Source: Acidobacteriota bacterium (GTDB lineage: Bacteria; Acidobacteriota; Vicinamibacteria; Vicinamibacterales; UBA2999). From it: DNA of 64,000 nucleotides. The DNA is taken from positions 1,115 through 65,114 of the forward strand of contig VFZN01000016.1 of NCBI GenBank assembly GCA_016871195.1, read 5' to 3'. Below the pieces are notes generated by a model that was not told the origin of the DNA, ran no database searches, and worked only from the letters and a program-made list of their open reading frames with translations. The first letter of the stretch is position 1; each line of letters opens with the position of its first letter. The position numbers and the translations under genes were made by a program. Positions 12,186 to 48,060 of the stretch are shown here, piece by piece.

Positions 12186-12219
12186 GATGTCCTGCTCTCT
12201 TCGGAATGGCGTGGAGGGG

Positions 12220-30540: not shown

Positions 30541-30561
30541 CCCGGTCTGCACGAGGCACCG

Positions 30562-31893
30562 ATGATCGATCGCACACACGAGGCACGCCGGACAAGCTGG
30601 GTCGCGTCGGCGCAGGGACACGCGGATTTCCCCCTGCAGAACCTGCCGCTCGGCGTCTTCTCGACGCCGCGCGATCGGCGTCCGCGCCCCGGGGTGGCCA
30701 TCGGCGACGAGGTGCTCGACCTGTCGGCCCTGGCCCTCAGCGGTCTGCTCGACACCGCACTGGCCGATGCCGCGCCGCTGCTGACGGCCGACACGCTCAA
30801 TCCGCTGCTGGCCCAGCCTGCCTCCGTGCGCCTTGCGCTGCGTCACGCGCTGTTCGATCTGCTGGCCGACGACGCCCCCCATCGCGCGCGCGTGGCTGAG
30901 ATGCTGTCTGCGGCCTCGCACGTTACCCTGCACCTGCCGGCCCGCATCGGTGATTACACCGATTTCTACGCCGGCATTCACCACGCACTGAATGTCGGGC
31001 GGCAGTTCAGGCCCGATCAGCCGCTGCTGCCCAACTACAAATGGGTGCCCATCGGTTACCACGGTCGCGCCTCCTCCATCGTCGTGTCTGGAACGCCGGT
31101 CGTGCGCCCGAACGGTCAGCGCCGTGCCCCGGGGCAGGACACCGCGGCACCCGATGCCGGACCATCGCGCCGCCTCGACTACGAACTGGAACTCGGCATC
31201 TGGATGGGCCCCGGTTCGTCACTGGGCACGCCGGTGCCCATCGCGCAGGCCGAGGCGCACATCGCCGGGCTGTGTCTGCTGAACGACTGGTCGGCGCGCG
31301 ACCTGCAGGCGTGGGAATATCAGCCCCTGGGGCCGTTTCTGGCCAAGAACTTCGCCACAAGCATTTCTCCGTGGATCGTCACCACCGAGGCACTGGCGCC
31401 CTTCCGCATGCGTCAGCCTGCGCGGCCCGAGGGTGATCCCGCACCGCTGCCCTATCTGTGGGATGCCGACGATCAGGCGCACGGCGCCTTCGATCTGGAA
31501 CTGGATGTGTATCTCTCGACGCCGGCGATGCGTGCGCGCGGGGCGGCGGCCCATCGCCTCGCCCGGGGCCACGCCTCGCATCTCTACTGGACCGTGGCCC
31601 AGCTGCTGGCACATCACACCGTGAACGGCTGCAACCTGCAGGCCGGCGATCTGCTGGGCACCGGCACCATTTCGACCCCCACACCCGAGGGCCTCGGCAG
31701 CCTGCTCGAACTGAGCGAGGGCGGGCGGCGGCCGGTGGATCTCGGTGAGGGCGAGACGCGCACATTTCTCGAAGACGGCGATGAAGTCATCATGCGCGCG
31801 AGGGCGCGCCGCGACGGCTTCGCCAGCATCGGGCTCGGTGAGGTCCGGGGTATCGTCCAACCCGCCCCGAGCCTTCACGTACCCCTCTCATGA
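30562..31893 (+). CDS. fahA: Fumarylacetoacetase
   Basis: Shows FPLQNLPLGVFS, IGDYTDFYAGIHHALNVG and DYELELG. The length of 443 aa fits. Confidence 0.9.
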   Translation: MIDRTHEARRTSWVASAQGHADFPLQNLPLGVFSTPRDRRPRPGVAIGDEVLDLSALALSGLLDTALADAAPLLTADTLNPLLAQPASVRLALRHALFDLLADDAPHRARVAEMLSAASHVTLHLPARIGDYTDFYAGIHHALNVGRQFRPDQPLLPNYKWVPIGYHGRASSIVVSGTPVVRPNGQRRAPGQDTAAPDAGPSRRLDYELELGIWMGPGSSLGTPVPIAQAEAHIAGLCLLNDWSARDLQAWEYQPLGPFLAKNFATSISPWIVTTEALAPFRMRQPARPEGDPAPLPYLWDADDQAHGAFDLELDVYLSTPAMRARGAAAHRLARGHASHLYWTVAQLLAHHTVNGCNLQAGDLLGTGTISTPTPEGLGSLLELSEGGRRPVDLGEGETRTFLEDGDEVIMRARARRDGFASIGLGEVRGIVQPAPSLHVPLS

Positions 31894-35085: not shown

Positions 35086-36723
35086 ATGATTGCCCTCGCC
35101 AACATCAACAAGCAGTACGGCCGCCAGCTCATCTTCGTCGACGCTTCGTTTCAGCTGAATCCCGGGGACAAAGTCGGCCTCGTGGGTCCGAACGGGGCCG
35201 GCAAGACCACGCTCTTCCGGATGATTGTCGGCGAAGAACAGCCGGATGAGGGCGAGGTGTCGGTGCCGCGCAAGCTCACGGTCGGCTACTTCCGCCAGGA
35301 TGTCGGTGAGATGCGCGGACGGCCGGTGATTGACGAGGCCATCGCCGGCAGCGGACGCGTCGGCGACCTGCACCACGAGCTGTCGTCGCTGCAGGCGGCC
35401 ATGGACGATCCGGCGCAGATGGACGACCTCGACCGCATCCTCGCGCGCTTCGGCGAGGTGCAGGAAGAGTACGAGCATCTCGGCGGCTACACGCTCGAAG
35501 CCCAGGCCCGCGAGGTGCTGCACGGGCTCGGGCTGGCCGACGACCAGATCGACGGCGACGTCGGGGCCCTGTCGGGCGGGTGGAAGATGCGAGTGGCCCT
35601 GGCGCGCGTGCTGCTCGGCAAGCCCGACGTGCTGCTGATGGACGAGCCGACGAACCACCTCGACATCGAGTCGATCATCTGGCTGGAACAGTTCCTCCGT
35701 ACCCTGCCCTCAGCCCTGCTGATGACCTCGCACGACCGCGAGTTCATGAACCGCATCGTCACGAAGATTGCCGAGATCGACAGCGGCGAAATCACGGTCT
35801 ACTCGGGCAACTACGACTTCTACGAACGCGAGCGGGCGATTCGCGAAACCAATCAGCAGGCGGCCTATGCGCGGCAGCAGGCGATGCTGGCCAAAGAGCA
35901 GCGGTTCATCGAGCGCTTCAAGACGCACGCCGCCAAGGCGGCACAGGTGCAGAGCCGCATCAAGGCCCTCGACAAGATCGAGAAGATCGAGCTGCCGAAG
36001 AAGCGCCAGATCGTCAAGTTCGAGTTCCGCACGCCGCCGCGATCGGGCGACCAGGTCGCGGTCATCGAGAACCTTCACAAGCGCTTCGGCCCGCGCATCA
36101 TCTACGACGGGCTCAGCCTCACGATCAGGCGCGGCGAGCGCTGGGCGGTGATGGGCCGCAACGGTGCGGGCAAGACGACGCTGCTGAAGATGCTGGCGGG
36201 CGTGCTGACGCCCGACACCGGTGACGTGCGGCTGGGGGCGAGCCTGCGCATGGGCTACTTTGCGCAGCAGTCGCTGGACGTGCTCGATGCCGACCTGACG
36301 ATCATCGAGCAGCTGCAGCAGGATTTTCCGCAGGACGGCCTCGGCGCGCTGCGCACGCTGGCCGGGGCCTTCCAGTTCTCGGGCGACGATATCGACAAGC
36401 GCATCCGCGCGCTGTCAGGCGGTGAGAAATCGCGGCTGGCCATGGCCCGCATGCTGTACAACCCGCCGAACTTCCTCGTGCTCGACGAACCGACCAACCA
36501 CCTCGACCTGGCGACCAAGGAAATGCTCGTCGATGCGCTGAAGGACTTCGACGGCACGATGATCTTCGTGTCGCACGACCGCATGTTCCTGCGCGGACTC
36601 GGGTCGCGCGTGCTTGAGCTTGGCGGCGACGGCGGCGACAGCCGCGACCCGCTGGTGTATCCCGGCAGCTACGTCGAGTATGTGGAAAAGACCGGCCACG
36701 AGGCGCCGGGCACCCACTCCTGA
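35086..36723 (+). CDS. ABC-F family ATPase (YbiT/YheS-like)
   Basis: Two cassettes (GPNGAGKTT / LSGGWKMR and GRNGAGKTT / LSGGEKSR) and no TM segments. The SD GGAAGG lies upstream. Confidence 0.85.
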   Translation: MIALANINKQYGRQLIFVDASFQLNPGDKVGLVGPNGAGKTTLFRMIVGEEQPDEGEVSVPRKLTVGYFRQDVGEMRGRPVIDEAIAGSGRVGDLHHELSSLQAAMDDPAQMDDLDRILARFGEVQEEYEHLGGYTLEAQAREVLHGLGLADDQIDGDVGALSGGWKMRVALARVLLGKPDVLLMDEPTNHLDIESIIWLEQFLRTLPSALLMTSHDREFMNRIVTKIAEIDSGEITVYSGNYDFYERERAIRETNQQAAYARQQAMLAKEQRFIERFKTHAAKAAQVQSRIKALDKIEKIELPKKRQIVKFEFRTPPRSGDQVAVIENLHKRFGPRIIYDGLSLTIRRGERWAVMGRNGAGKTTLLKMLAGVLTPDTGDVRLGASLRMGYFAQQSLDVLDADLTIIEQLQQDFPQDGLGALRTLAGAFQFSGDDIDKRIRALSGGEKSRLAMARMLYNPPNFLVLDEPTNHLDLATKEMLVDALKDFDGTMIFVSHDRMFLRGLGSRVLELGGDGGDSRDPLVYPGSYVEYVEKTGHEAPGTHS

Positions 36724-36726
36724 GGG

Positions 36727-36762
36727 GGCCCCCTTGGCTGGCCGAGGCCGGGCCGTTTTTTT
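36727..36762 (+). terminator. Rho-independent terminator after the ABC-F gene
   Basis: A GC-rich hairpin spans 36727-36754 (11 bp with a 2-nt bulge and loop CTGG). It is followed by G and T7 (36756-36762). Confidence 0.6.
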
Positions 36763-36868
36763 GCTTGCCTCCCGCCGCAAAAGAGGCCACTCTATCGAGT
36801 CGCATTCGGTTTTCTGAACGTGTCTGCAGTGGCCCCGTCTGCACCGGGGCCCGCCTGAGGAGGCGCCC

Positions 36869-38317
36869 ATGCATCGGCCGCTCGTCGTGTTCACCGCCGC
36901 ACTCATCGTCTTCGCTGCCGCCACCGCCCGCGCGCAGTCTGCGCCGGCGCCAGTGCCGACCTACTCGAAGGATGTCGCTCCCATCCTCAACAAGCACTGC
37001 GTCAGCTGCCATCGCCCCGGCGAAATCGGCCCGATGGCCTTCGAGAGCTATGCGCAGACCCGCCCGTGGGCACGGAGCATCCGCAGCAAGGTCATGCGCC
37101 GCGAGATGCCGCCCTGGGGCGCCGATAATGCCTCAAGCATGAAGATCGGCAACGACCGCACGCTGTCGTCGCACGAGCTCGACACCATCGTGGCGTGGGT
37201 GAACGGTGGCGCGCCCGAAGGCAACCCCGCCGACCTGCCCGCACGGCCCAGCTTCCCGACAGGCTGGCAGCTGGGTGAGCCCGACTTCGTGTTCGAGCAG
37301 CCGGTGGCCTGGACCGTCAAGCCCGACGCGCAGGAACCCTATCTCTACTTCTACGAGAAGATTCCGTTCGCTGAAGATCGCTGGGCCGCAGGCGTTGAAA
37401 TCCGTCCCAGCAACTTCAGCGTCGTCCATCACTCGGGCGTGTACATCATCGACATTCCCGACGGCTACACCGTGAAGGACGGCTACCTGTACGATGCGGC
37501 CGGCACGCAGGTGCCCCCCAGCGTGCCGATGGGCAAGCGCGCCACGCTGGCCGACGGCAGCCTTCTGGCCGGGGCCGACAAGGTGATCAGCTATGTGCCC
37601 GGGCGCGGCTACGAGAAGCATCCCGAGGGTTATGCCAAGCGCATTCCCGCCGGCAAGTACGTGCGCTGGGTAATGCACTACAACCCGACCGGGCAGCCCG
37701 AGACCGACCGCAGCAAGCTCGGCCTCTGGTGGGCCAAGGGCCCGGTCCGTCGCGAGGTGCTCAACCTGCAGGCGGGTGACCCCATCCCCGGCAGCGGCAA
37801 TCGCGGCCTCTACTTTGCCAACGGCAAGGAAGTGCTCTACGAGTCGGATGACACCACGGGCCGCCGCGGCAAGACCCCGACGATTCCCCCGTATGTGGCC
37901 GACTTTAAGATGATGGGGATCACACCGGTCAACGAGGACATCACGCTCTACGCCCTCACCCCGCACATGCACCTGCGCGGCAAGAGCATGAAGTGGTGGG
38001 TGACCTATCCCGATGGCCGAGAGGAAGTCATTCTCAACGTGCCCAACTTCGACTTCAACTGGCAGATCCAGTACGAACTCGCCACGCCGCTCAAGGTGCC
38101 GGCCGGCAGCAAGATTACCAACATCGCCATCTTCGACAATTCGGTGAACAACAAGTGGAATCCGGCGCCCGAGAAGGAAGTCTACTGGTCGGAGCAGAGC
38201 TGGGACGAGATGTACCAGCCCACGACCCAGTTCTCAATCGACCGCCAGGATCTGACGCGGCCCGCCGCACGGGGCACCCGCGAACAGCAGCGCCAGCAGC
38301 AGCACCAGCAGCAGTAA
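36869..38317 (+). CDS. Secreted fusion: N-terminal c-type cytochrome domain + PHM/DBH-like type-II copper monooxygenase
   Basis: Signal peptide, then CVSCH (C44-C47-H48) with a downstream EMPPWG. Then, in PHM order: VVHHSG, VMHYNP, TPHMHLRGK, SWDEMYQ. The SD GAGGAGG lies upstream. The C-terminal tail is Gln-rich. Confidence 0.75.
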   Translation: MHRPLVVFTAALIVFAAATARAQSAPAPVPTYSKDVAPILNKHCVSCHRPGEIGPMAFESYAQTRPWARSIRSKVMRREMPPWGADNASSMKIGNDRTLSSHELDTIVAWVNGGAPEGNPADLPARPSFPTGWQLGEPDFVFEQPVAWTVKPDAQEPYLYFYEKIPFAEDRWAAGVEIRPSNFSVVHHSGVYIIDIPDGYTVKDGYLYDAAGTQVPPSVPMGKRATLADGSLLAGADKVISYVPGRGYEKHPEGYAKRIPAGKYVRWVMHYNPTGQPETDRSKLGLWWAKGPVRREVLNLQAGDPIPGSGNRGLYFANGKEVLYESDDTTGRRGKTPTIPPYVADFKMMGITPVNEDITLYALTPHMHLRGKSMKWWVTYPDGREEVILNVPNFDFNWQIQYELATPLKVPAGSKITNIAIFDNSVNNKWNPAPEKEVYWSEQSWDEMYQPTTQFSIDRQDLTRPAARGTREQQRQQQHQQQ

Positions 38318-38322
38318 CGCCG

Positions 38323-38982
38323 ATGCGGCCGGTTACGTCACCACACGCTCATCGCCGTCGCGCGGCTCGCCGCGCGGCGGTCGCGGTGGCCCTCGCGTTG
38401 CTGGCGGTCGCGGGCACCACCGACACACACGGCTCCGTTCAGGCACAGCAGGAGCGGCCGACCAGTCAGGTGCCGACGCTGGGACGGCCGACACGGCCAG
38501 ACGACCCGGCACCGCTGCTCGACTTCGGCCGCTACTTCAACGGCACGTGGAATGTCAGCTGGGAATATCCGGAAAGCCCCCTCGGGCCGGCCGATGTCGT
38601 CGACGGCACCACCACCTTTCGCCAGGTGGGGCCCTCGACCTTCGAAGCATCGAGTGCGCTGACCAGCGCAGCCGGGGCCTTCACGGTGAAGGAAACCTTC
38701 GAGTATCAGCGGGCCGAGCAGACCATCACACGCACGGTCGTCGACAGCCGGGGCTTCACCTACACACAGACGGGCAGCGTCACCGGTGACCTCGGCGGGC
38801 AGTTCACCATCAGACTCGACGGCAAGCCCTTCACCCATCAGGGACAGACGGTCCGCATCAATGCCGTGATGCGACTGCTGTCGCCCTTCAACTTCCGGGT
38901 GCAGTTCACCCTGTCCACCGGCAACGGCCCGTTCACCAATTTCGGTAATCCCTGGTGGCGGAAGGAGACGGCACCGCGATGA
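38323..38982 (+). CDS. Secreted hypothetical protein (Arg-rich, possibly Tat-type leader)
   Basis: Start is set at MRPVTSPHAHRRRAARRAAVAVALALLAVAG, 6 nt after the upstream stop. The remainder is beta-rich. I recognise no domain. Confidence 0.55.
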   Translation: MRPVTSPHAHRRRAARRAAVAVALALLAVAGTTDTHGSVQAQQERPTSQVPTLGRPTRPDDPAPLLDFGRYFNGTWNVSWEYPESPLGPADVVDGTTTFRQVGPSTFEASSALTSAAGAFTVKETFEYQRAEQTITRTVVDSRGFTYTQTGSVTGDLGGQFTIRLDGKPFTHQGQTVRINAVMRLLSPFNFRVQFTLSTGNGPFTNFGNPWWRKETAPR

Positions 38983-39359
38983 GACGACTGTCCTGCCTTG
39001 TCCTTCTGCTCGCCGGCACCATCGGTGCGGCCGCCGCCCAGGAACCTGCGTCGAGCCGCGTACCCGTCGTGGCCGTGGCGGGGTGTGTCACGCAGCAGGG
39101 CGCCGCCTATGGCCTGCGATCGGCCACCGAGCCCACTCCGAGCATCGCCAACGGACTGCCGACCGGCGACGTCTACAAGGGACCAACCGTCGGCCCGAAC
39201 ACGTTCCAGCTCATCGGCACCTCCGAGTTCGACATGCCCGCGCACGTCGGCCACACCGTGCTGATCAAGGGGCTGCTCATCAAAGCCTCGCCGACCAGCC
39301 GGCTCAATGTCACGTCAGTGAGCCGTCTGTCGACATCGTGTGCCCCGGCGCCGAAGTGA
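38979..39359 (+). CDS. Small secreted hypothetical protein
   Basis: Start is at MRRLSCLVLLLAGTIGAAAAQ and overlaps the upstream stop (ATGA at 38979-38982). 126 aa with two Cys in the mature part. Confidence 0.55.
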   Translation: MRRLSCLVLLLAGTIGAAAAQEPASSRVPVVAVAGCVTQQGAAYGLRSATEPTPSIANGLPTGDVYKGPTVGPNTFQLIGTSEFDMPAHVGHTVLIKGLLIKASPTSRLNVTSVSRLSTSCAPAPK

Positions 39360-40476
39360 CCTGAGCGGCCGGGCCCTGGGCCTGCCGGCGGGCCTGACCC
39401 TGCTGGCGACGCTGGCGACACTGCCCCTCTCGACCGGCCTTCAGGCCCACGACTTCGAGCGGACCACCGTTCATCTCACCATCGCCCGTGACGGGCGCTT
39501 CGAGCTCAGGCTGGCGCACGACCCTCAGTGGCTGCTGCTGCGCATGGACTCGCTCGCAGGCCAGCCCGGCCGCCCCGCCGACTCGGCCGAGGCACGCGAT
39601 GCCCGCCTGACGGCGCTGGCACCCGACGCCATCGATCGGGTCGTGCTCTTCATCGACGGTCGCGAAGTCCGTCCCGAGTCGAGCACCTATGCGCCACCCC
39701 CCGACACCGTCCCGGCTGGTGAATTCGCCCTGGCATCGTACACACTGCGCGGGCAGCTGCCGGCCTCGAGTACAACCCTTCGCTGGTACTACGGGCTCGT
39801 GGCCGATCCGTATCCGTTCACGCTCACCCTCGCGGATGGAACGACCGTGACCGAATGGGTGCAAGGTGATGCCTGGAGCACGGCGCTCGCCCTCGGCACG
39901 GCTCCTCAGCCGACCCTCACCGATGATCTGGTTCGATACGTGTGGCTCGGCATCACGCACATCGTCCCGGGTGGTCTCGATCACATGCTGTTCATTGCAG
40001 GGCTGTTCCTGCTGACGGCGGCATGGCGGTCGCTGCTGTGGCAGGTGTCGGCATTCACGGTGGCGCACACCCTCACGCTGGGCCTGGCACTGACGGGTGT
40101 CATCGCGCTGCCATCGGCCGTGGTCGAGCCGCTCATTGCCCTGTCGATCAGGTATGTGGGCCTCGAGAATGTGCGGACGCGCGAGCTGACGCGCACGCGC
40201 GTGGGGCTGGTGTTCGTCTTCGGCCTGCTGCACGGCCTCGGATTCGCCGGCGTGATGCAGGGCCTGCGCCTGCCGGCGTCGCAGCTGGTCCCCGGACTGC
40301 TGGGCTTCAATCTCGGCGTGGAACTCGGACAGCTGGCCGTGCTGGGCAGCCTCGCGCTGCTCACGTGGCCTCTGAGGCACCGCGTCTGGTATCACCAGCG
40401 GATGGTGACGCCGGCCTCGCTGGGCATCGCCCTCATCGGTCTCTACTGGGCAGTGACCCGACTGATGCAGGGATGA
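39340..40476 (+). CDS. HupE/UreJ-2 family membrane protein with N-terminal periplasmic domain (putative metal permease)
   Basis: GTG start overlaps the upstream gene. The signal is followed by LQA|HDFE, so the predicted mature N-terminus is a His. Motifs include HIVPGGLDHMLFIAGLFLL and GLLHGLGFAGVM across 6 TM helices. Confidence 0.7.
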   Translation: MPRRRSDLSGRALGLPAGLTLLATLATLPLSTGLQAHDFERTTVHLTIARDGRFELRLAHDPQWLLLRMDSLAGQPGRPADSAEARDARLTALAPDAIDRVVLFIDGREVRPESSTYAPPPDTVPAGEFALASYTLRGQLPASSTTLRWYYGLVADPYPFTLTLADGTTVTEWVQGDAWSTALALGTAPQPTLTDDLVRYVWLGITHIVPGGLDHMLFIAGLFLLTAAWRSLLWQVSAFTVAHTLTLGLALTGVIALPSAVVEPLIALSIRYVGLENVRTRELTRTRVGLVFVFGLLHGLGFAGVMQGLRLPASQLVPGLLGFNLGVELGQLAVLGSLALLTWPLRHRVWYHQRMVTPASLGIALIGLYWAVTRLMQG

Positions 40477-40536
40477 CTCCGCCGGCTGCGGCCGGCGGAG
40501 CCTCCCTGTCTGCGTCATGCACGGACGCCGTGTGCC

Positions 40537-41622
40537 TTACCGCGCGCTGCCGGTCGCAGGCACAAACTTCTGGATGCGCTGCCCGTAGGTATCGGCGGCA
40601 TACACCGCGCCTTTCGAGTCGACGACGATGCCGTGAACCCAGTCGAACTGGGAGGGCCCGAGCCCCTGCGAACCCCAGGTGGCGAGCAGCGTGCCGTCTG
40701 CCAGCGAGAACTTGTGCACGCGCTCGCGCAGGTGATCGGCCATGTAGCCGACACCTTCGGTGCCCTTCCGCGAGATGTGCACATCCCACGGATTCCAGTC
40801 GTTCCTGAGCTCGCGCTTGTAGGTCAGGTTGCGGTCGAAAATCTGCAGGCGCTTGTTCTCGCGGTCGATGATGTAGAGGTTCTCCTCGGCATCCACGGCC
40901 AGCTTGTGCGGCAGATGCCACTCGCCGGGGCCAGTACCGCGGTCGGCCGGCCCACCTGCGCCACGCGCCACCTGGCGGATGACCTTGCCCTGGCGGTCGT
41001 AGAGAATCACGCGGTTGTTGCCGTAACCATCGGTGACGACCATGTTGCCGTTCTTCAGGATCGCAATGCCAGACGGCAAATCAAGATGCGTCGCGTCGTT
41101 GCCCTTCTCGAGCGTGGTGCCGATCTGGAGCAGCAGCCGATCCATCGACGGGTTGAGCTTCACGATGCGATGGGCATCGCGCTCGATGATGTAGACGTTG
41201 CCCTCCCAGTCGACACCGCCCGAATGCTGCCAGTCGGAGTTGATCTTCTTCCCGTTGTATTCGCCGTCGCCGCCGGTCTGAATCAGCGTGCCTGCGGTGT
41301 CGAACACCATGACGGGCTTGGGCCCGCGATTGAAGACGAAGATGCGGTCCTGCTGATCGATGGCCAGACCGGAGATGCCGGGCTGATTGGTCGGCGGACC
41401 TGAGGGGCCACTGGCACCGCGGGCACGTCGGGCCGCTGCCTGCGCCTCGCGCTCGGCCGGAGGTGGTGGCGCCTCGCGCAAGCCGAACCACATTCCCGAA
41501 GGCAACGTGGGCCAGTTGGGCACCAGACGATATGCCTCTCCCTGTGCCTCGACGCGTGACGCCGGCCACGCCAGCGCCAGAATCACCGCTGCTGCACACG
41601 CTGCCACTCTGATGGGTCGCAT
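40537..41622 (-). CDS. Secreted NHL-repeat six-bladed propeller, peptidyl-alpha-hydroxyglycine alpha-amidating lyase (PAL)-like, paralogue 1
   Basis: Start is at MRPIRVAACAAAVILALAWPASRVEAQ, with GGGAGAA upstream. Motifs are VTDGYGNNRVILYD, WHLPHKLAVD and IIDRENKRLQIFD. Confidence 0.75.
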   Translation of the reverse strand: MRPIRVAACAAAVILALAWPASRVEAQGEAYRLVPNWPTLPSGMWFGLREAPPPPAEREAQAAARRARGASGPSGPPTNQPGISGLAIDQQDRIFVFNRGPKPVMVFDTAGTLIQTGGDGEYNGKKINSDWQHSGGVDWEGNVYIIERDAHRIVKLNPSMDRLLLQIGTTLEKGNDATHLDLPSGIAILKNGNMVVTDGYGNNRVILYDRQGKVIRQVARGAGGPADRGTGPGEWHLPHKLAVDAEENLYIIDRENKRLQIFDRNLTYKRELRNDWNPWDVHISRKGTEGVGYMADHLRERVHKFSLADGTLLATWGSQGLGPSQFDWVHGIVVDSKGAVYAADTYGQRIQKFVPATGSAR

Positions 41623-41794
41623 TGACGTTCTCCCTGCATCCTCGCAGGCGCGTGGCCTCATCGCCCGTGCCGCCTGGTTGATCCGCCGGCACGCCGCCTG
41701 CCTCGACTCGACGGCGCTGAGTGTAGCGCAGTCGACCTGGTGGCGTGGAGGTCAGGCGCTGAACGCAGCCGTGAACCGTGCTACCGTCTGCGCC

Positions 41795-42784
41795 ATGCGA
41801 CTGCTGCGTCCTGCATCCGCTGCCCTGGCTACGCTGCTGCTGGCCACCTCACTCGCCGCCCAGAACCCTGCCACGCTGCCGCCCGAGGAGCGTGCGGCCT
41901 TCGAGGCGCAGAACCGGGCACTCGACGAGACCGTCCGTTCGGCCCCGCGACTGCCGCTGGTGGCTGCGCCGCTGCCCCTCACCCCCCCGAAGCACCCCGA
42001 CTGGGCGCTCGGCATGGTGTCGTGGGTCGCCGCCGGCGCCGATGGGCTCACCTATCTGCTGCAGCGCGGCGCGCAAGCCGACCCGGTGCTGGTCGTCGAC
42101 CGCGGCGGCCGCATCGTCCGATCGTGGGGACGCGGACTTTATACGATGCCGCACGCCATCCGGGTCGATCCGCAGGGCGCTGTGTGGACCACCGATGCCG
42201 CCAGTTCGAAGGTGTTCAAGTTCAGCCCGACCGGCACACTGCTGATGACCATCGAGGTGGGTGGGCAGCCGTCGCCGTGCGGCGGGTTCTGCAGCACCAC
42301 CGACATTGCCTTTGCGGCCGACGGCCACCTGCTCATCGCCGACGGGTATCGCAACGCACGCATCCTCGAGTACACCGCGGAGGGGCAGAAGGTGCGCGAG
42401 TGGGGACGCGCGGGCACAGGCCCCGGCGAATTCCGCCTGCCGCATTCCATTCAGATTGACGCCCGCGGCACCATCTATGTGGCCGATCGCGAGAACGGCC
42501 GCATCCAGCGCTTCACGCGCGAGGGCACCTTCATCGGCGAGTGGAGGAATCTCGGCAAGACGTTCGGGCTGACGCTGGCCGGACCGACGCTGTGGCTCTC
42601 GACCATCCCCCGCGGTCCCAACACCGCGCCCGGCTGGCTGATGGCGGTCGACCCGGTCACGGGACGCGTCACAGGGCTCGTCGAGTCATCGGGGAATCAC
42701 GGCATGGCGGTGACGCCCGACGGCGACCTGCTGCTCGGCCCCGGGCCCGATCAGATACCGCAGCGGTACTCGCCCCGTCGCTAG
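41795..42784 (+). CDS. Secreted NHL-repeat propeller, PAL-like, paralogue 2
   Basis: Start is at MRLLRPASAALATLLLATSLAAQ. Motifs are MPHAIRVDPQGAVWTTDAASSKVFKF, FCSTTDIAFA, IADGYRNARILEY, FRLPHSIQID, VADRENGRIQRF and NHGMAVTPDG. Confidence 0.8.
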   Translation: MRLLRPASAALATLLLATSLAAQNPATLPPEERAAFEAQNRALDETVRSAPRLPLVAAPLPLTPPKHPDWALGMVSWVAAGADGLTYLLQRGAQADPVLVVDRGGRIVRSWGRGLYTMPHAIRVDPQGAVWTTDAASSKVFKFSPTGTLLMTIEVGGQPSPCGGFCSTTDIAFAADGHLLIADGYRNARILEYTAEGQKVREWGRAGTGPGEFRLPHSIQIDARGTIYVADRENGRIQRFTREGTFIGEWRNLGKTFGLTLAGPTLWLSTIPRGPNTAPGWLMAVDPVTGRVTGLVESSGNHGMAVTPDGDLLLGPGPDQIPQRYSPRR

Positions 42785-44280
42785 GCGGGGGGACGCGGGG
42801 CTGCTGCGAGTGCGCGCAGCACGGCCTCAGCCTCGGGCTGGCCTGCGCGTGCCGGTGCGCGACCCGGCTGGGCCGGGCGGGGCAGCGTCAGCGACAGCGG
42901 CGTCTGCCCCTGCGCATCCTGCGCGTCAATCACTGCGCCTTGAGCCACGAGCGCACGAATCACCCCGACATGACCATCAGCCGCCGCCAGATGCAGCGGC
43001 GTCTGCCCTCCGGGTCCGGCATCGCGGGGAGACGCTCCGGCATCGAGCAGCGCCTGCACCACCGCCTCGACATCGCGGCGGTCGCGGGGAATCAGCGGCG
43101 TGTCGGCGTCGGTGACATTCCATCGCACGAGATCAGACGGACGCGCTTCCCGTTCGACCATGGCACCGGCCGCCATCGTGAGCGGCGTGTGTCCGTCGGC
43201 GAGCCCCAGCGATGGATCAGCGCCTGCCGCGAGCAGCGTACGCACCAGCGTGACTTCGAGATAGGCCACCGCAAGCATGAGCGGGGTGGCCCCGCGCAGC
43301 GTGTGCGACAGGGCCCACTGCGACCCGAAACGCCGCACCGGGCTGCCCTGCCGCAGACGCGCATGCACATTGGCCCCGCGGGCCAGCAGCGCACGCACAG
43401 AGTCGTTATCGCCGCGCAGCACGGCCGCGTGCAGTGCGGTATAGCCGGCCCCATCGGCCTGCACGTCGGCACCGGCCTCGATCAGGCGACGAGCCGCCGT
43501 TCCGTGACCGTCAAACGCGGCCAGCACGAGGGCCGAACGTCCGTCGGCGGCCACATCGTTGGACGGCGCGCCATGCGCCAGCAGCACCTCGAGGGTCGGC
43601 ACATCACCTGACAGGGCCGCAAAGAGCAGCGGTGTCAGGCCGCCGGCGGTGACGCGGTGCGCATCTTGCCCCGACGTCTTCACGCTGCGGCTCGGGCCGC
43701 GGTCGAACATGACCACCAGCGGCCGCGTGAGCGAACGGGCGTGCACGGCGGCTCCCCTGGCGAGCAGGGCCTCGGCGGCTGCGCGGTGTCCACCGGAGGC
43801 CGCCCACATGAGGGCGGTCTGTCCACGCACCGGCTCGGTACGGCGCGGATCGGCACCGGCGTCGAGCAGCGCCCGCACGGCTGCGGCATCGCCGACGCGG
43901 GCGGCTTCCATGAGGGGATCGATGCCGGCCTCCGTCAGGGCGGTCGCCGATGCGCCGGCGTTCAGCAGGGTCTGCACAATCGCCGCATGGCCCGCCGCCG
44001 CGGCCAGGTGCAGCGGCGCCACGCCGAGATCGGTCACCGCACCCGCATCGGCGCCGGCGGCCAGCAGGCGCGAGACGATGGCGGTGTGGCCGGCGTGCGC
44101 GGCCCAGTGCAGCGCGGTGCTGCCGTCGGGCGCGGCAGCGCGCACCGACACGCCCTCGTTGAGCAGGCGCGTCACCGCGGCCGCATCGCCGTCGCGCGCG
44201 GCCGCCATCATCGGCGGCAGCGCAGGCGGTGCCGCGGCCCCGAGACCCACGGCCAGTGTCAGGACCAGAGCCGGCAGCAT
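42781..44280 (-). CDS. Secreted ankyrin-repeat protein (more than 10 ANK repeats)
   Basis: Signal MLPALVLTLAVGLGAAA, then reiterated G-TALHWAA--GH--IV--LL--GA units over the whole length. The start shares one nt with the upstream stop (TGATG). Confidence 0.8.
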   Translation of the reverse strand: MLPALVLTLAVGLGAAAPPALPPMMAAARDGDAAAVTRLLNEGVSVRAAAPDGSTALHWAAHAGHTAIVSRLLAAGADAGAVTDLGVAPLHLAAAAGHAAIVQTLLNAGASATALTEAGIDPLMEAARVGDAAAVRALLDAGADPRRTEPVRGQTALMWAASGGHRAAAEALLARGAAVHARSLTRPLVVMFDRGPSRSVKTSGQDAHRVTAGGLTPLLFAALSGDVPTLEVLLAHGAPSNDVAADGRSALVLAAFDGHGTAARRLIEAGADVQADGAGYTALHAAVLRGDNDSVRALLARGANVHARLRQGSPVRRFGSQWALSHTLRGATPLMLAVAYLEVTLVRTLLAAGADPSLGLADGHTPLTMAAGAMVEREARPSDLVRWNVTDADTPLIPRDRRDVEAVVQALLDAGASPRDAGPGGQTPLHLAAADGHVGVIRALVAQGAVIDAQDAQGQTPLSLTLPRPAQPGRAPARAGQPEAEAVLRALAAAPRPPA

Positions 44281-45596
44281 CAGTCGAACGACAGCGGCCC
44301 GGTGCTGTTGCCGTGTACGTCGATGCGTACGCCGAGGGTATCGAGCAGGCCGAGGTGCATATTGGCGAGCGGTGTGCCCTCGGCGTAGCGGACATGGCGG
44401 CCACCGCGAATCGTGCCGCTGCCCCCGCCCACGAGCAGCAGCGGCAGGTTGCGTGGCACGTGCCCATTGCCCTCGCTCATGCCCGCGCCGTACAGCAGCG
44501 TCACGTGATCGAGCAGCGACCCGTCGCCGTCAGGTGTGTCGCGCAACCGGTTCACATACTCGGCGAAGAGCGACACGTGATAGTGGTTGATGCGCGCGCA
44601 CTTGTCCATGCGCACCGGGTCGCGCTGGTGATGCGAAATGGGATGGTGCGCATCGGGCACGCCGATTTCCGGATAGGTGCGGCCGCTGAACTCGCGCCCC
44701 AGCATGAAGGTCGTCACGCGCGTCACGTCACCCTGGTAGGCCAGCAGCTGCAGGTCGAACATGAGCCGCGCATGCTCGGCAAAGCTCTCGGGCACACCCG
44801 CCGGGCGATCGAATCGCGGCAGTGTGATGTTCTCGGTCATCGTCCGCTGGATGCGGCGCTCGACGTCGCGCACACTGTCGAGATAGGTGCCGAGCGTGAC
44901 GCGATCGGCCGCAGCGACGCGGCTGCGCAGCCCGGAGATCTCGCCCACGAGCGAGTCGAGCAGGCTGCCCTTGAGCTGCAGGCGCGTGGCCTGATCGGCC
45001 GCGCCGTCGCCGAACATGCGCGCAAACACCACGCCGGGGTCTCGCTCCATCGGCAGCGGCGCCGTCGGGCCGGCCCACGCAATCGTGCCGGTGTACACGC
45101 AGCTGCGGCCGAAATCGCACGACATCCCTGAGTCGACCGACTCGAGCGCCAGCTCGAGCGACGGCAGCAGCGCGTCGGCGCTGAGCGTGCGGGCGGCCAC
45201 CTGATCAATCGAGACACCCGCGCGCAGCGTACGGCTCGGGGTGACATCGGTCAGGAACCGCGTGCTGGCGTCGGCGTGATTGTTGAACTGGCGCTCGCCC
45301 GGCGGCGCCGGCGGCAGACTGTCGAGTCCGCTCAACACCAGCAGGCGATCGCGGACCGGCGCCAGGGGCATCAGCGTGGGTGACAGTGTGAAGCTGCTGC
45401 CCGTGTCTGCCGGAAACCACTGTCCCGGAATGACCCCGTTCGGCACATACACCACACCGAAGCGGCGCCGGGGCGAAGCCACCGTCTGCGCCAGCGGGGT
45501 CAATGCCGGCACCATGGCATCGAGCAGCGGCAGCGGCAAGGCGGCCCCGAGGCTGCGCAGCAGCGTGCGACGCGAAAGTGCTTTCTTCATGATCAT
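44280..45596 (-). CDS. DUF1552 (HXXSHH) family protein with Tat-like leader
   Basis: Start is at MIMKKALSRRTLLRSLGAALPLPLL. It carries the HHPISHH motif. The ATGA overlap with the upstream DUF1592 gene is at 45593-45596. Confidence 0.8.
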   Translation of the reverse strand: MIMKKALSRRTLLRSLGAALPLPLLDAMVPALTPLAQTVASPRRRFGVVYVPNGVIPGQWFPADTGSSFTLSPTLMPLAPVRDRLLVLSGLDSLPPAPPGERQFNNHADASTRFLTDVTPSRTLRAGVSIDQVAARTLSADALLPSLELALESVDSGMSCDFGRSCVYTGTIAWAGPTAPLPMERDPGVVFARMFGDGAADQATRLQLKGSLLDSLVGEISGLRSRVAAADRVTLGTYLDSVRDVERRIQRTMTENITLPRFDRPAGVPESFAEHARLMFDLQLLAYQGDVTRVTTFMLGREFSGRTYPEIGVPDAHHPISHHQRDPVRMDKCARINHYHVSLFAEYVNRLRDTPDGDGSLLDHVTLLYGAGMSEGNGHVPRNLPLLLVGGGSGTIRGGRHVRYAEGTPLANMHLGLLDTLGVRIDVHGNSTGPLSFD

Positions 45597-48037
45597 GATG
45601 ACGCCCGGCTCCTCATCTGAAATGGCACGCTGCTCACCACGGCCCGCACCAGGGCCGACCATCGATCGCCCCCGGCGAGCGTGGCCTCGGCAATGGCCCG
45701 CACCGCCGGCTGATCGTGCACCGTCAACTGGCGCCCGATGGCATAGGTCAGCATGCGTGCGGCCAGTGTCATGCGCAGCCCGTCGGCGCGTGACAGCACG
45801 AATCGCCGCAGTCCGACTACGCCGCTGATCGGCGTGCCATCGGCAAACACCGCCGAGGCATCGACCGGCTGCCCCAGCGTGTGCGTGCGCACACGCCCGA
45901 TGGCGTCGAACTGCTCGAGGGAAAACCCGAGCGGATCCATCCGCGCATGACACGACGCACAGGCCGGGTTGCGGCGATGCTGTTCCATCTGCGCCCGCAT
46001 CGTCAGGGGACGTCCGTCCTCGTCGGTCGCCGCCAGATCGGGAATGTCGGGCGGCGGTGGAGGCGGAGGCATGCCGAGCAACGTGTCGAGAATCCAGGTG
46101 CCGCGCAGCACCGGTGTAGTGCGATCGGGATACGACGTCGCCAGCAGCATCGCGCCGAGCCCGAGTACGCCGCCGCGCACCCCGTCGGTGAACGTGTGCC
46201 GGCGATACAGGTCGGTGTGCATGCCGCTGATGCCGTAGTGGTCCGCGAGGCGTGCATTGATGAACGAATAGTCGGCCGACACCAGCTCGGTGACGGGCCG
46301 GTCATCACGCAGCTGGCTGCCGAGGAAGCGCCGGGCTTCCTCGAGCAGCGCCCGTCTGAGGTTTTCGTCGAACTCGGGGAAGACATTCGCATCAGGCAGC
46401 GCGGCCTCGACCTTCCGAAGCCCGAGCCACTGAAATGCAAAGTTGGTGACGAGCGCCTCGGCCTTCGGATCGGCCAGCATCCGCCGCACCTGCGCATCGA
46501 GAGTGGCGGGCGTCGACAGCTGCCCGCGCTCGACGAGCCGCAGCAATGACTCGTCCGGCACGCTGCTCCAGAGGAAGAACGACAGCCGCGAGGCGAGATC
46601 GCCGTCGCTCAGCCGATAAGCGGCGGTTGCCTCGCCGCCGACCGGATCGTGCTCGAGGCGGAAGAGGAAGGGCACGCTCACCAGCAGCCGCTCGAGCGCG
46701 GCCTGCACGCCGGCCTCGAACCCGCCGCGGGTGGCGCCCTGCTCATAGAACGCCAGCAGGGGTGCCAGATCATCGGCGCCCACGCGACGCCGGTATGCGC
46801 GCCGCGCCACCTGCGAAAGAATGCGCTCGGCGCAGGCGCGCGCCGGCAGCGTCGGCGACGGTCGGCACACAAACAGGGTGCGCCGGCTCGGCGTGTCACC
46901 CGCCGGGCCCGGGCGCTGCGGACCAATCACGGTCACGGCATCCACAGCGGCCAGTCCGTCGTACTGCTCGTCAGACCCGCGACCGAAGTCGACGGCCAGC
47001 GGCTGCGCAACGCTGTCAGACACCCACGGCGTGTCGACGAAGGTCACCGACACCTCGTGCGGACCGGCCCCGACTGCCGTGCTCACCGCCAGGTCGCGGT
47101 CGGCGGCGTGCATGTAGAGCTCCCACGGCGTCTCGCCGACAATTTCACCGTTCCACGTCAGCGGACCGGGCAGACCCGGCGCCGCACCACCGACCCGCAG
47201 GCGTCCGACGCGGCGCCTGTCGATGCGCACGTCGAGTGTCTGCGGCGTCCCCAGGCCGATGATGTAGTCGTACACCTGCCGTCGCAGACGCACCGCGATG
47301 CGATAGTCGCCATCCGCGGGAAAATGATGCGTGACCGTCGCTCCTCCGCGCGAGCCAAACGGCTGCGCCGCATCGACGCGGCTGTCCTGCTCGAGCAGCC
47401 TGGGCACGCGATACGACACCGCGGCCGGTGTCGCCGACAGTGATGCATCACCCACCGCCAGGCGGCTGATGTCGCGCGCGGCGGTCAGGTAGCGTTCGAG
47501 ATGTGCGGGCGACAGGGTGAGGCTGGCCGCCACGTTGTCAAAGCCCTCGTCGGCCTCGTCGGGCAGCAGCAGCGCCCGCGTGTCGACCTCGAGGCCGAAC
47601 ACATCGCGCACCGCGTTCGCGTATTCCGCACGATTGAGGCGGTGGGCGCCGGTGCGGCCCGGCCTCGGGTGCTGCCGGGCCTGCGCATCGAGCGCATCGG
47701 TTAGGGTGCGCTGCACCTCGACCGTCCACCCGGCATCGGGCCGCGGGCGTGACGGCGGGGGCATCTGCCCCGTGCGCAGCTTGTGCAGCACGGGTTCCCA
47801 GAGTTCCGGGTGCTGCGCGGCCTCGCTGGCACGCGCGCCGGTCAGGCTGAACCCACCCACGCGGGCGCGATCGTTGTGACACGACAGGCAGTGGTCCTGC
47901 ACATAGCCGTCGGCGGTTCGAGGCGCAGCGGCAGGCAACGGTGGCGTCAGCGCCTGCCCGCGCGTGGCCGCGTGCGTGAGCGACAGCACCAGCCCGACGA
48001 CCAGGGCGCCCGGAATGAGAGAATCGCGGGCTCTCAT
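45593..48037 (-). CDS. DUF1592/DUF1588/DUF1585-type large secreted protein with CxxCH motifs (planctomycete-type PSD/PSCyt architecture)
   Basis: Start is at MRARDSLIPGALVVGLVLSL. CLSCH lies near the N-terminus and NPACASCHARMDPLGF near the C-terminus. The ~814-aa length and pairing with DUF1552 are typical of the family. Confidence 0.75.
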   Translation of the reverse strand: MRARDSLIPGALVVGLVLSLTHAATRGQALTPPLPAAAPRTADGYVQDHCLSCHNDRARVGGFSLTGARASEAAQHPELWEPVLHKLRTGQMPPPSRPRPDAGWTVEVQRTLTDALDAQARQHPRPGRTGAHRLNRAEYANAVRDVFGLEVDTRALLLPDEADEGFDNVAASLTLSPAHLERYLTAARDISRLAVGDASLSATPAAVSYRVPRLLEQDSRVDAAQPFGSRGGATVTHHFPADGDYRIAVRLRRQVYDYIIGLGTPQTLDVRIDRRRVGRLRVGGAAPGLPGPLTWNGEIVGETPWELYMHAADRDLAVSTAVGAGPHEVSVTFVDTPWVSDSVAQPLAVDFGRGSDEQYDGLAAVDAVTVIGPQRPGPAGDTPSRRTLFVCRPSPTLPARACAERILSQVARRAYRRRVGADDLAPLLAFYEQGATRGGFEAGVQAALERLLVSVPFLFRLEHDPVGGEATAAYRLSDGDLASRLSFFLWSSVPDESLLRLVERGQLSTPATLDAQVRRMLADPKAEALVTNFAFQWLGLRKVEAALPDANVFPEFDENLRRALLEEARRFLGSQLRDDRPVTELVSADYSFINARLADHYGISGMHTDLYRRHTFTDGVRGGVLGLGAMLLATSYPDRTTPVLRGTWILDTLLGMPPPPPPPDIPDLAATDEDGRPLTMRAQMEQHRRNPACASCHARMDPLGFSLEQFDAIGRVRTHTLGQPVDASAVFADGTPISGVVGLRRFVLSRADGLRMTLAARMLTYAIGRQLTVHDQPAVRAIAEATLAGGDRWSALVRAVVSSVPFQMRSRASS

Positions 48038-48060
48038 GGGCCGCGAGTGTAGCAGAAGAC

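Follow-up and report, generated by a model that had tools for sequence, protein, structure and literature searches.

A cluster of genes for secreted proteins in a soil/freshwater acidobacterium, which is kept in related genomes, suggests an ascorbate-independent bacterial version of the two-step amidating chemistry that animals perform with PHM and PAL, the two halves of PAM. From the sequences and the predicted structures we propose that the encoded proteins would form a periplasmic system for two-step oxidative N–C(alpha) cleavage, PAM-like in build and wired differently, and we put the probability of this reading at about 45%. The cluster lies in a window of 64,000 nucleotides, the whole stretch of DNA analysed. 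The ORFs that a first-pass annotation had reported are all present at the coordinates given, and the locus is laid out as follows:

36733..36755, + strand: terminator-like hairpin and T-run, 3' of the upstream ABC-F gene
36869..38317, + strand: secreted cytochrome c/PHM-like copper monooxygenase fusion, 482 aa (signal peptide ~aa 1–23, haem c domain, two-domain PHM/DBH-like core)
36956..37213, + strand: c-type cytochrome domain, ~aa 30–115 (Pfam Cytochrome_CBB3, CxxCH)
37229..38287, + strand: PHM/DBH-like catalytic core, aa 121–473 (Foldseek, hhalign, copper ligands)
38323..38982, + strand: g2, secreted DUF1579-like protein (Pfam DUF1579, synteny)
38979..39359, + strand: g3, small secreted protein, OB-fold predicted, two Cys invariant (AF2, weak Foldseek OB-fold matches, synteny)
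39340..40476, + strand: HupE_UreJ_2 membrane protein, putative metal permease (Pfam PF13795)
40537..41622, − strand: NHL-A, secreted six-bladed PAL-type NHL propeller (phmmer to 3fvz, catalytic residues, synteny)
41819..42784, + strand: NHL-B, second secreted PAL-type NHL propeller (phmmer to 3fvz, catalytic residues)
42781..44280, − strand: ankyrin-repeat protein with N-terminal hydrophobic segment (Pfam Ank families)

Signal peptides are found on all cluster products in the ORF translations, and the hairpin marks the 5' boundary of the transcription unit. The likely start of g2 (38323) lies 6 nt past the stop codon of the monooxygenase gene, the g2 stop codon and the g3 start (38979) overlap by 4 nt, and the HupE gene, the true start of which falls within 39340–39403, abuts g3 or overlaps it; of the propeller genes, NHL-A, on the minus strand, probably starts at 41622 and NHL-B at 41819. 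The ankyrin gene occupies the same place in close relatives, and 13 of 81 loci have Ank matches no further than 10 kb away; its relevance to the cluster is uncertain.

The cytochrome c–copper monooxygenase fusion

By its predicted fold and its copper ligands, the product of 36869–38317 is a PHM/DBH-type two-copper monooxygenase, presumably with the corresponding chemistry. That it carries six copper ligands in canonical order, as first read from the motifs VVHHSG (H187/H188), VMHYNP (H270), TPHMHLRGK (H366/H368) and SWDEMYQ (M448), was borne out by alignment of a profile of its own family with rat PHM (hhalign; 95.1% probability, E 3e-8, 274 columns), which matches them one-to-one to H107, H108, H172, H242, H244 and M314 of rat PHM and thereby assigns H187, H188 and H270 as CuH-type and H366, H368 and M448 as CuM-type ligands. 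All six are invariant among 20 sequences of 53–82% identity. They are near-invariant in an alignment of 142 relatives that takes in 50%-cluster representatives, where they occur in 134–141 of ~141 sequences (CuH ligands in 140–141 of ~142; H366 in 140/141, H368 in 140/142 and M448 in 134/137).

The AF2 model (pLDDT 77.7, pTM 0.77; low around M448, pLDDT ~52–54) has the PHM topology of two consecutive beta-sandwich (jelly-roll) domains. Structure prediction had been suggested as a check on this half, and Foldseek found the PHM/DBH fold in the model: PHM or DBH structures fill the first 31 ranks (E 6e-12 to 5e-9, ~340 columns across both domains), with human DBH 4zel among the top ones (E 1e-10, 15% identity), and the next-best structural class follows at E > 8e-6. 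Sequence identity to PHM is 12–15%, and phmmer and hmmsearch with this protein gave no match among PDB sequences. The profile searches suggested alongside were positive for NHL, in the propellers described below; Cu2_monoox_C remained under its cut-off of 23 in the monooxygenase (19.1 bits, E 1e-3) and Cu2_monooxygen had no match there.

The residues with which PHM binds the carboxylate and backbone of its substrate are not kept in the profile alignment (R240 to T364, Y318 to T452, N316 to Q450), and the position of T364 is itself variable in the family (F/S/M/T/L), but R370, an Arg two residues past the second CuM His, is near-invariant. Since R240 and Y318 are not conserved, the canonical peptidyl-Gly substrate is not supported.

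The initial description of a PHM core was correct as far as it went and overlooked an N-terminal cytochrome c domain. Cytochrome_CBB3 matches aa 38–90 (E 1e-6), nt 36998–37012 encode the haem motif C44-x-x-C47-H48, CxxCH is kept in 134–135 of 135 relatives, and M80, a candidate axial haem ligand, is invariant (140/140). With such a haem c built into the monooxygenase, no ascorbate is expected, and the cytochrome is likely to be the electron donor in its place; to our knowledge, ascorbate is not present in the bacterial periplasm. The PHM-like family comprises 19,480 clusters, so most of its members probably act without a PAL partner. Other fusions occur in the wider family (AhpC/TSA, EF-hand, hydrolases), and none of the ten examined joins the monooxygenase to PAL.

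The PAL-type propellers and the accessory proteins

Both propellers had been taken for the lyase half of the system; the conserved lyase-like partner is NHL-A, whereas NHL-B adjoins the cluster in close relatives only. They are ~30% identical to each other and match Pfam NHL (E 7e-24 and 6e-19) as well as 6-bladed propeller models. In phmmer comparisons with rat PAL (3fvz), NHL-A aligned over one 224-residue stretch (E 3.5e-20) and NHL-B over a single collinear stretch (E 4e-29), and PAL is the best PDB match of the N-terminal half of NHL-B (E 6e-20). A MAFFT alignment with the rat PAL core places equivalents of R533, H585, Y654, H690, R706 and H786 in both propellers. The same six residues recur in 31–33 of 33 NHL-A orthologues (Tyr at Y654 in 33/33, Arg at R706 in 32/33 and at R533 in 31/31), and the Zn ligands H585, H690 and H786, which sit on alternate blades of PAL, are His in NHL-A, NHL-B, 32–33 of the 33 orthologues and the other adjacent NHL proteins. 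Three further NHL subfamilies that adjoin PHM-like genes also keep the PAL catalytic set, and some NHL-A orthologues bear the JGI name 'peptidylamidoglycolate lyase'. Two other PAL residues are not kept: the Ca2+ ligand D787 aligns with Gly, and the active-site M784 is replaced by Trp in NHL-A and by a gap in NHL-B.

The motifs from which a PAL-like core had originally been proposed (IADGYRNARI, VADRENGRIQRF, MPHAIRVD, LPHSIQID and NHGMAVTPDG) all lie in NHL-B (41819–42784). The catalytic residues hold for both propellers, but VADRENGRIQRF and 'LPH...D' are largely generic NHL-repeat consensus and nearer TRIM71 and Thin than PAL. Scored over their whole length, the NHL proteins likewise come out higher against TRIM71 and Thin than against PAL; the TRIM71 and Thin scores, however, are sums of overlapping repeat matches, whereas the PAL match is one long collinear stretch.

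Among the accessory proteins, g2 is probably a calycin-type beta-barrel: the window protein reaches 20–21 bits against PF07617 (DUF1579; gathering cut-off 25.2), and 9 of 12 family members match this profile (E 3e-4 to 4e-6). No Pfam domain is found in any of 101 g3 homologues; the AF2 model of g3 (pLDDT 79) gives weak Foldseek matches to OB-folds (E ≥ 0.01). In one locus (L016), g2 and g3 are joined in a single protein. The permease matches PF13795 at E 8e-44 (149.5 bits, cut-off 24.5) and has an extracytoplasmic N-terminal domain of ~190 aa.

Conservation of the neighbourhood and competing explanations

Neighbours within 10 kb were counted in 80 species-level loci with a PHM-like gene, all of which belong to a single order-level group (Vicinamibacterales and relatives). 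Co-localisation of PHM-like and PAL-like genes in other genomes had been set beforehand as the test by which the idea could be refuted, and it is present: 39 of the 80 loci have a PAL-like gene no more than 10 kb away, in at least three arrangements, while about half of the loci are without one in this range. The two genes are linked by synteny here, not fused, and the NHL proteins adjoining PHM-like genes fall into at least three subfamilies, each of which keeps the PAL catalytic residues. As a control, unrelated flanking genes recur in 0–10 loci only; because the flanks are not conserved, the adjacency of PHM and NHL genes appears to be selected. Fold match, profile match and conserved synteny are far beyond chance.

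The originally described clustering with a HupE/UreJ permease and two secreted proteins stands, with the amendment that g2 and g3, not the lyase, accompany the PHM-like gene most constantly: g3 is found in 62–69 of the 80 loci, g2 in 57–59 and HupE_UreJ_2 in 46, so that the PHM-like gene, g2 and g3 form the tighter core, often accompanied by the permease. The nearest orthologues outside this species group (67–86% identity) have PHM–g2–g3 only, with neither NHL nor HupE nearby, and NHL-A stands alone in locus L082. These observations, together with the loss of R240 and Y318 and the variety of fusions lacking PAL, favour an alternative in which monooxygenase, g2 and g3 alone are the working unit, a haem-c-driven hydroxylase of some other substrate (e.g. 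a small hydrophobic or aromatic compound held in a lipocalin-like g2, cf. DBH and dopamine), and the PAL-type propellers are frequent neighbours with substrates of their own. We judge this rather unlikely, as the NHL adjacency recurs in three or more independent arrangements, involves at least three subfamilies with the full catalytic set, and appears selected, given the unconserved flanks. In one arrangement, that of L073 and L075, the NHL gene sits between g2 and g3 in a same-strand operon with the order PHM–g2–NHL–g3; elsewhere, g2 adjoins the monooxygenase gene in some loci and the lyase gene directly in others, on either strand.

A small beta-barrel fold is common to some periplasmic metallochaperones. 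The cluster might accordingly be a module for periplasmic metal or redox homeostasis, in which the haem–copper protein oxidises Cu(I) or another metal, or detoxifies reactive oxygen species, together with the permease and small metallochaperone-like proteins, and the propellers have structural or binding roles. The frequency of HupE_UreJ_2, the relatives fused to AhpC/TSA peroxiredoxin-like domains and the small secreted beta-barrel of g3, whose metallochaperone likeness is without Foldseek support, would fit such a module. We nevertheless find it improbable, because no His/Met/Cys metal-binding cluster is kept across the subfamilies of g2 and g3, two Cys being all that is invariant in g3, and because conservation extends to the complete sets of CuH and CuM ligands and of PAL catalytic residues, as expected of enzymes. 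It is least probable of all that generic propellers match PAL by repeat consensus within inherited background synteny, a reading to which the TRIM71 and Thin scores, the consensus nature of VADRENGRIQRF and the origin of every locus in one order-level clade might point, and which is largely refuted by the collinear PAL match (the best one for the N-terminal half of NHL-B), the 6/6 catalytic positions kept in each adjacent NHL examined and the synteny control.

Known systems and the proposed two-step chemistry

With PAM of animals and green algae, the bacterial cluster has in common the two-domain PHM fold with H-H...H and H-x-H...M copper ligands, an NHL propeller whose active site combines a Zn-binding His triad with catalytic Tyr and Arg, and the secretion of both proteins. 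The halves are fused in PAM, whereas synteny links them here; in Drosophila, PHM and PAL are in separate genes. The soluble PHM and PAL of planarians are separate genes as well (PMC5461114). Further differences from PAM are the N-terminal haem c of the bacterial monooxygenase, the absence of R240 and Y318 beside a near-invariant R370, the missing D787 and M784 of the propellers and the additional DUF1579-like, OB-fold and HupE-like partners. The copper type II ascorbate-dependent enzymes DBH, tyramine beta-monooxygenase and MOXD1 share the catalytic core of the PHM-like protein, and DBH-class enzymes show that such a core can act on non-peptide substrates; DBH has DOMON and dimerisation domains and relies on ascorbate, whereas the bacterial protein is much shorter and has a cytochrome c domain instead.

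The first-pass annotation knew of no characterised bacterial PHM plus PAL pathway, which must be amended for the PAL half: lyase activity in vitro has already been shown for several bacterial PALs, NHL proteins such as ExiPAL of Exiguobacterium sp. that cleave peptidyl-alpha-hydroxyglycine and whose natural function has been described as unclear (PMC10900485, PMC9155641), and US patent 9,096,843 covers bacterial PAL enzymes with demonstrated activity. The reports on these enzymes give no partner monooxygenase or genomic context (PMC10900485, PMC9155641). The chemical logic we propose is also that of MovX (MNIO) and of PosC and PflC (HEXXH/2-oxoglutarate), which oxidise the alpha-C–H beside an amide nitrogen to a hemiaminal and so produce a C-terminal amide (PMC12636437), although these enzymes have unrelated folds and iron cofactors, are cytoplasmic and act on RiPP precursors that bear a leader and whose genes share their cluster.

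In the two-step system that we favour, the fused haem c would take electrons from the periplasmic respiratory pool and, in place of ascorbate, pass them to the CuH site, and O2 activated at CuM would hydroxylate the C–H beside an amide nitrogen. NHL-A, here together with NHL-B, would then split the resulting carbinolamide with its Zn(His)3 site and Tyr/Arg residues to give an amide along with glyoxylate or a similar 2-oxo compound; for this lyase step, too, the chemistry is deduced from conserved active-site residues. As for the accessory proteins, we infer that the g2 barrel and the disulfide-bonded OB-fold g3, co-transcribed with the monooxygenase, probably bind or present the substrate, and that the permease may handle a metal required by the system. 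Both resemblances behind the original idea of a split bacterial PHM plus PAL system thus hold up in fold, copper ligands and PAL residues; a canonical peptidyl-Gly substrate is not supported. Most likely, the substrate is a glycine-like, carboxylate-bearing N-acyl or peptidyl compound, bound otherwise than PHM binds peptidyl-Gly. The cluster has no precursor-peptide gene, so that the maturation of a dedicated peptide is no likelier a role than the catabolism or scavenging of glycine conjugates.

More speculatively, and with considerable doubt, these proteins may belong to a very large, unrecognised bacterial family of periplasmic PHM-type monooxygenases reduced by a fused cytochrome c. Teamed with PAL-type lyases in Vicinamibacterales, they could represent a genuine prokaryotic counterpart of the animal amidating pathway, to which they might also be related by descent, converting glycine-terminated peptides or N-acylglycines into amides and glyoxylate. 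If true, this would also explain what bacterial PALs do in nature.

Layout of the cluster

The window has a G+C content of about 68%, and its closest relatives are MAGs of the Vicinamibacterales, phylum Acidobacteriota. The gene set at 36.7-44.3 kb, drawn from the ORF list and family scans, is given below, with PHM and PAL denoting the two halves of animal PAM.

Features of the cluster region (window positions)
36733-36755: terminator-like hairpin at the end of the preceding ABC-F gene
36869-38317, + strand: PHM-like secreted protein, 482 aa, a cytochrome c fused to a PHM/DBH-like core
38323-38982, + strand: g2, DUF1579-like secreted protein
38979-39359, + strand: g3, small secreted protein without a family
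39340-40476, + strand: HupE_UreJ_2 membrane protein (E 8e-44)
40537-41622, - strand: NHL-A, NHL propeller
41819-42784, + strand: NHL-B, NHL propeller
42781-44280, - strand: ankyrin-repeat protein

The ATG of g2 lies 6 nt past the stop codon of the PHM-like gene, g3 shares 4 nt with g2, and the HupE gene adjoins g3. These four genes therefore look like a single operon, with NHL-A and NHL-B as separate units. No Rfam elements were found in 36000-44500. A RiPP-type reading was rejected because the three intergenic gaps are too small for a precursor-peptide gene and 41623-41818 holds no free small ORF.

The tyrosine-catabolism genes for homogentisate 1,2-dioxygenase and fumarylacetoacetase (29230-31893) lie about 5 kb upstream of the cluster; a HAD hydrolase gene and two genes for ABC-F ATPases stand in between. 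The tyrosine-catabolism pair is likewise found beside the cluster in one close relative, and this is probably ordinary synteny. A Planctomycete-type pair on the - strand (44280-48142) adjoins the ankyrin gene and comprises a DUF1552/HXXSHH protein (44280-45953) and a large PSCyt/PSD (DUF1592-type) cytochrome-like protein (45593-48142). The trio of PSD, HXXSHH and ankyrin proteins also occurs a few kb from a lone NHL-A orthologue in the related locus L082, and ankyrin matches lie within 10 kb of a PHM-like gene in 13 of 81 loci.

The PHM-like protein and its family

All of the motifs quoted in the first-pass annotation, which had likened the locus to a split PAM, were found in window ORFs. Pfam recognized an N-terminal Cytochrome_CBB3 domain in the PHM-like protein (E 1e-6); Cu2_monoox_C gave no more than a sub-threshold match, at 19.1 bits against a cut-off of 23. 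Among PDB sequences no match was obtained by phmmer or by hmmsearch of a 20-sequence profile, so the relationship to PHM is visible only through fold search and profile alignment. For the AlphaFold model (pLDDT 77.7, pTM 0.77), Foldseek placed 31 structures of PHM and human DBH in the first 31 ranks (E 6e-12 to 5e-9; about 340 columns, 12-15% identity), followed by PNGase F-type proteins as the next class at E > 8e-6. The rat PHM core sequence, checked against 1SDW, was then used as the reference for local hhalign with a 142-sequence family profile, which gave 95.1% probability and E 3e-8; global hhalign of A1, a shallow alignment of PHM-like proteins, did not recover the relationship.

Copper ligands of the PHM-like protein paired with rat PHM by hhalign
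H187 / H188: rat PHM H107 / H108, copper site CuH
H270: rat PHM H172, CuH
H366 / H368: rat PHM H242 / H244, copper site CuM
M448: rat PHM M314, CuM

All six copper ligands proposed from motifs thus find their counterparts in rat PHM and are near-invariant, being kept in 134-141 of about 141 diverse relatives, and the haem motif C44-x-x-C47-H48 and M80 are as conserved (same range). The carboxylate clamp of PHM is not kept, R240 corresponding to T364, a variable position, and Y318 to T452. R370, two residues past the second CuM His, is shared by 135 of 142 relatives and could conceivably replace R240/Y318 in carboxylate binding. By predicted fold and aligned catalytic residues, the protein is a member of the PHM/DBH superfamily that departs from PHM in its substrate-binding residues and falls short of the curated Pfam threshold.

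The family is very large, with more than 5,595 close homologues and 19,480 clusters at 50% identity for E <= 1e-3 (3,909 for E <= 1e-30), and its members are named 'cytochrome c', 'mono/diheme cytochrome c family protein' or 'hypothetical' in the source records. Many relatives have an added N-terminal AhpC/TSA-redoxin domain, and some have EF-hands, a hydrolase or M56. In the distant members P0123, P0127, P0167, P0175 and P0235, the extra domains include N-terminal AhpC/TSA-redoxin (the whole unit sometimes being duplicated), EF-hands, alpha/beta-hydrolase, BlaR1-type M56 peptidase and CBM48, which suggests diverse reductants and substrates. The family has also expanded inside individual genomes: two or three paralogues occur in tandem or less than 10 kb apart in L080, L081, L047, L017, L016, L023, L033 and L043, the sites of clustered paralogues including L084:17893-19293, and separate distant copies are found within single genomes (e.g. 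CAWIBL010000012.1 and CAVPVV010000003.1).

PAL-type propellers and accessory proteins

In whole-protein phmmer searches, the NHL domains of TRIM71 and Thin outscore rat PAL for both NHL-A and NHL-B, but their scores are totals over overlapping repeat matches, whereas PAL matches in a single collinear stretch (E 4e-29 for NHL-B, 3.5e-20 for NHL-A). The top PDB match of the N-terminal half of NHL-B is PAL (E 6e-20), and the C-terminal half, which includes 'VADRENGRIQRF', is closer to the generic NHL repeats of TRIM71, Thin and designed 'Pizza' propellers than to PAL. The earlier view of 'VADRENGRIQRF' as a PAL signature was therefore not borne out, and by itself this motif is not evidence for PAL. 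Since the motifs in this half of NHL-B are generic, we obtained the sequences of rat PAL and PHM and checked the catalytic positions directly, aligning the rat PAL core (100% vs 3FVZ) with NHL-A, NHL-B and 33 NHL-A orthologues from related loci.

Rat PAL positions in NHL-A orthologues and in NHL-B
H585 (Zn ligand): His in 32/32; NHL-B His
H690 (Zn ligand): His in 32/33; NHL-B His
H786 (Zn ligand): His in 33/33; NHL-B His
Y654 (catalytic): Tyr in 33/33; NHL-B Tyr
R706 (catalytic): Arg in 32/33; NHL-B Arg
R533 (active site): Arg in 31/31; NHL-B Arg
D787 (Ca2+ ligand): Gly; NHL-B Gly
M784 (active site): Trp; NHL-B gap

The alignment to rat PAL upholds the proposed PAL-like identity of both proteins, which keep the Zn His triad and the Tyr/Arg set; on structural and catalytic-residue grounds they are assigned to the PAL-type NHL family, and by the same alignment both appear to lack the PAL Ca2+ site. 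Some NHL-A orthologues are named 'peptidylamidoglycolate lyase' by JGI, others 'YncE' or '6-bladed beta-propeller'. PAL activity has been shown for several bacterial PAL-like proteins, notably ExiPAL of Exiguobacterium (PMC10900485, citing US patent 9,096,843; PMC9155641); what these proteins do naturally is called unclear in the same papers.

DUF1579 matches were obtained in 9 of 12 g2 relatives (best E 4e-6), and a profile search of the PDB gave no significant match to a solved relative. The N-terminus of g2, MRPVTSPHAHRRRAARRAAVAVALALLAVAG (38323-38400), has an Arg-rich n-region, and its signal peptide may be of the Tat rather than the Sec type. All 101 homologues of g3 are 'hypothetical'; two Cys are invariant, and no metal-binding motif conserved across the g3 subfamilies was found. 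The g3 model (pLDDT 79) resembles an OB-fold weakly (Foldseek E >= 0.01), and so we assign it no specific function. In L016, a locus from a marine acidobacterial MAG, g2 and g3 form one continuous ORF (L016:10001-12500, g2/g3 region about 11404-12438), a gene fusion which implies joint action of g2 and g3.

Gene linkage and a proposed oxidative cleavage pathway

The best-supported reading of the cluster, at a probability of roughly 0.45, is a PAM-like oxidative cleavage of N-C(alpha) bonds that runs in two steps in the periplasm. The analysis shows the folds, the metal-ligand and catalytic positions, the secretion signals, the operon layout and the synteny, and the chemistry, electron path, coupling and substrate are inferred. 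A PHM-type copper monooxygenase, reduced via its own cytochrome c domain and not by ascorbate, would hydroxylate a C-H adjoining an amide nitrogen, and a PAL-type Zn lyase would then free the amide and glyoxylate or a related product. As partners, g2 and g3 would handle the substrate, and the HupE-like protein would handle a metal. Because R240 and Y318 are absent and there is no precursor gene, we do not commit to peptidyl-Gly as the substrate; no less likely is a glycine conjugate or other carboxylate-bearing amide that is catabolised or scavenged.

Less probable, yet a serious competitor, is that the monooxygenase, g2 and g3 form a unit acting on an unrelated substrate, the lyases being independent neighbours. 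To examine linkage, the neighbour genes of the window were mapped onto 80 loci with PHM-like relatives from species-representative genomes.

Genes found near the PHM-like gene (of 80 loci)
g3: 62-69
g2: 57-59
HupE-like: 46
PAL-type NHL: 39
Other flanking genes of two of these clusters (control): 0-10

The predicted co-localisation of PHM-like and PAL-like genes thus recurs elsewhere and, given how rarely the flanks recur, is not background synteny. Most orthologues of the window protein (67-95% identity) show just PHM-g2-g3. A paralogous group (50-57% identity) has g2 and NHL first, next HupE on the opposite strand, and finally g3 and PHM; whether g2 shares the strand of the NHL gene differs among loci. 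In L073 and L075 a single strand carries PHM-g2-NHL-g3, with an NHL of a different subfamily (41-42% identical to NHL-A), and the PHM-like gene of L021 is followed by more distant PAL-type NHL genes, at least two in number. The adjacent NHL genes keep the PAL catalytic set in all three arrangements. The exact six-gene order of the window plus the ankyrin gene is repeated in close relatives only, and using NHL-B as the query of a metagenome scan brought up just three loci, nearly identical to one another, which provide no independent test of linkage. NHL-A sometimes occurs without a monooxygenase, as in L082, where it lies beside malate synthase. From these varied arrangements, the lone NHL-A of L082 and the g2/g3 counts, we conclude that the monooxygenase-lyase link is real but facultative, and that g2 and g3 are obligate-looking monooxygenase partners.

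The NHL-A orthologue of L082 (L082:7984-11083; 82% identical) is oriented divergently from the adjacent malate synthase gene, whose product consumes glyoxylate, which PAL releases as a by-product; the pairing was seen in this one locus, and the two proteins belong to different cellular compartments. In L084 (567-8852), the gene directly 5' of the PAL-like one encodes a TonB-dependent-receptor-like outer-membrane protein, and the monooxygenase has an amidase gene (PF01425) 8 kb upstream of it, which would fit substrate uptake and amide-product hydrolysis; these two genes recur in just 2-5 of 80 loci. Near-identical Vicinamibacterales-type clusters also appear in MAGs titled Bifidobacteriaceae, Bifidobacterium, Acidimicrobiia, Cyanobacteriota or Clostridia (L018, L043, L040, L051, L065, L081), likely through binning or labelling errors in public records.

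A role in metal or redox homeostasis could be squared with the HupE-like neighbour, and is improbable beside the conserved copper ligands and PAL catalytic residues. Superficial resemblance, for which the higher whole-protein scores of TRIM71 and Thin might speak, is very improbable in view of the collinear PAL matches, the conserved catalytic positions and the flanks that seldom recur.

To our knowledge, PHM/DBH-type enzymes are currently viewed as eukaryotic and ascorbate-dependent, and PAM is held to be the sole route to glycine-derived C-terminal amides. A published comparison sets 'bacterial' PNGase F against 'eukaryotic' PHM (PMC8812541). Split PHM and PAL genes are already known in animals (PMC5461114), as are active PALs in bacteria, whereas we found no paper on bacterial cytochrome-c-fused PHM-like proteins in the searchable literature, which covers few subscription journals. 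As far as that literature shows, the new elements are the haem-c-fused bacterial PHM-like family with its full copper-ligand set, its size, and its conserved association with g2/g3 and PAL-type lyases, to which it is genetically tied in one bacterial order. If the coupling is false, the family still represents an uncharacterised class of periplasmic copper oxygenases. If it is true, it would give a natural function to bacterial PALs, the role of which PMC10900485 calls unclear, and would offer an ascorbate-independent, bacterially expressible PHM for enzymatic peptide amidation, current platforms for which depend on rat PHM (PMC9155641). It would likewise supply a self-contained model of how electrons reach the CuH site over a long range, and would bear on the origin of the amidating enzyme.
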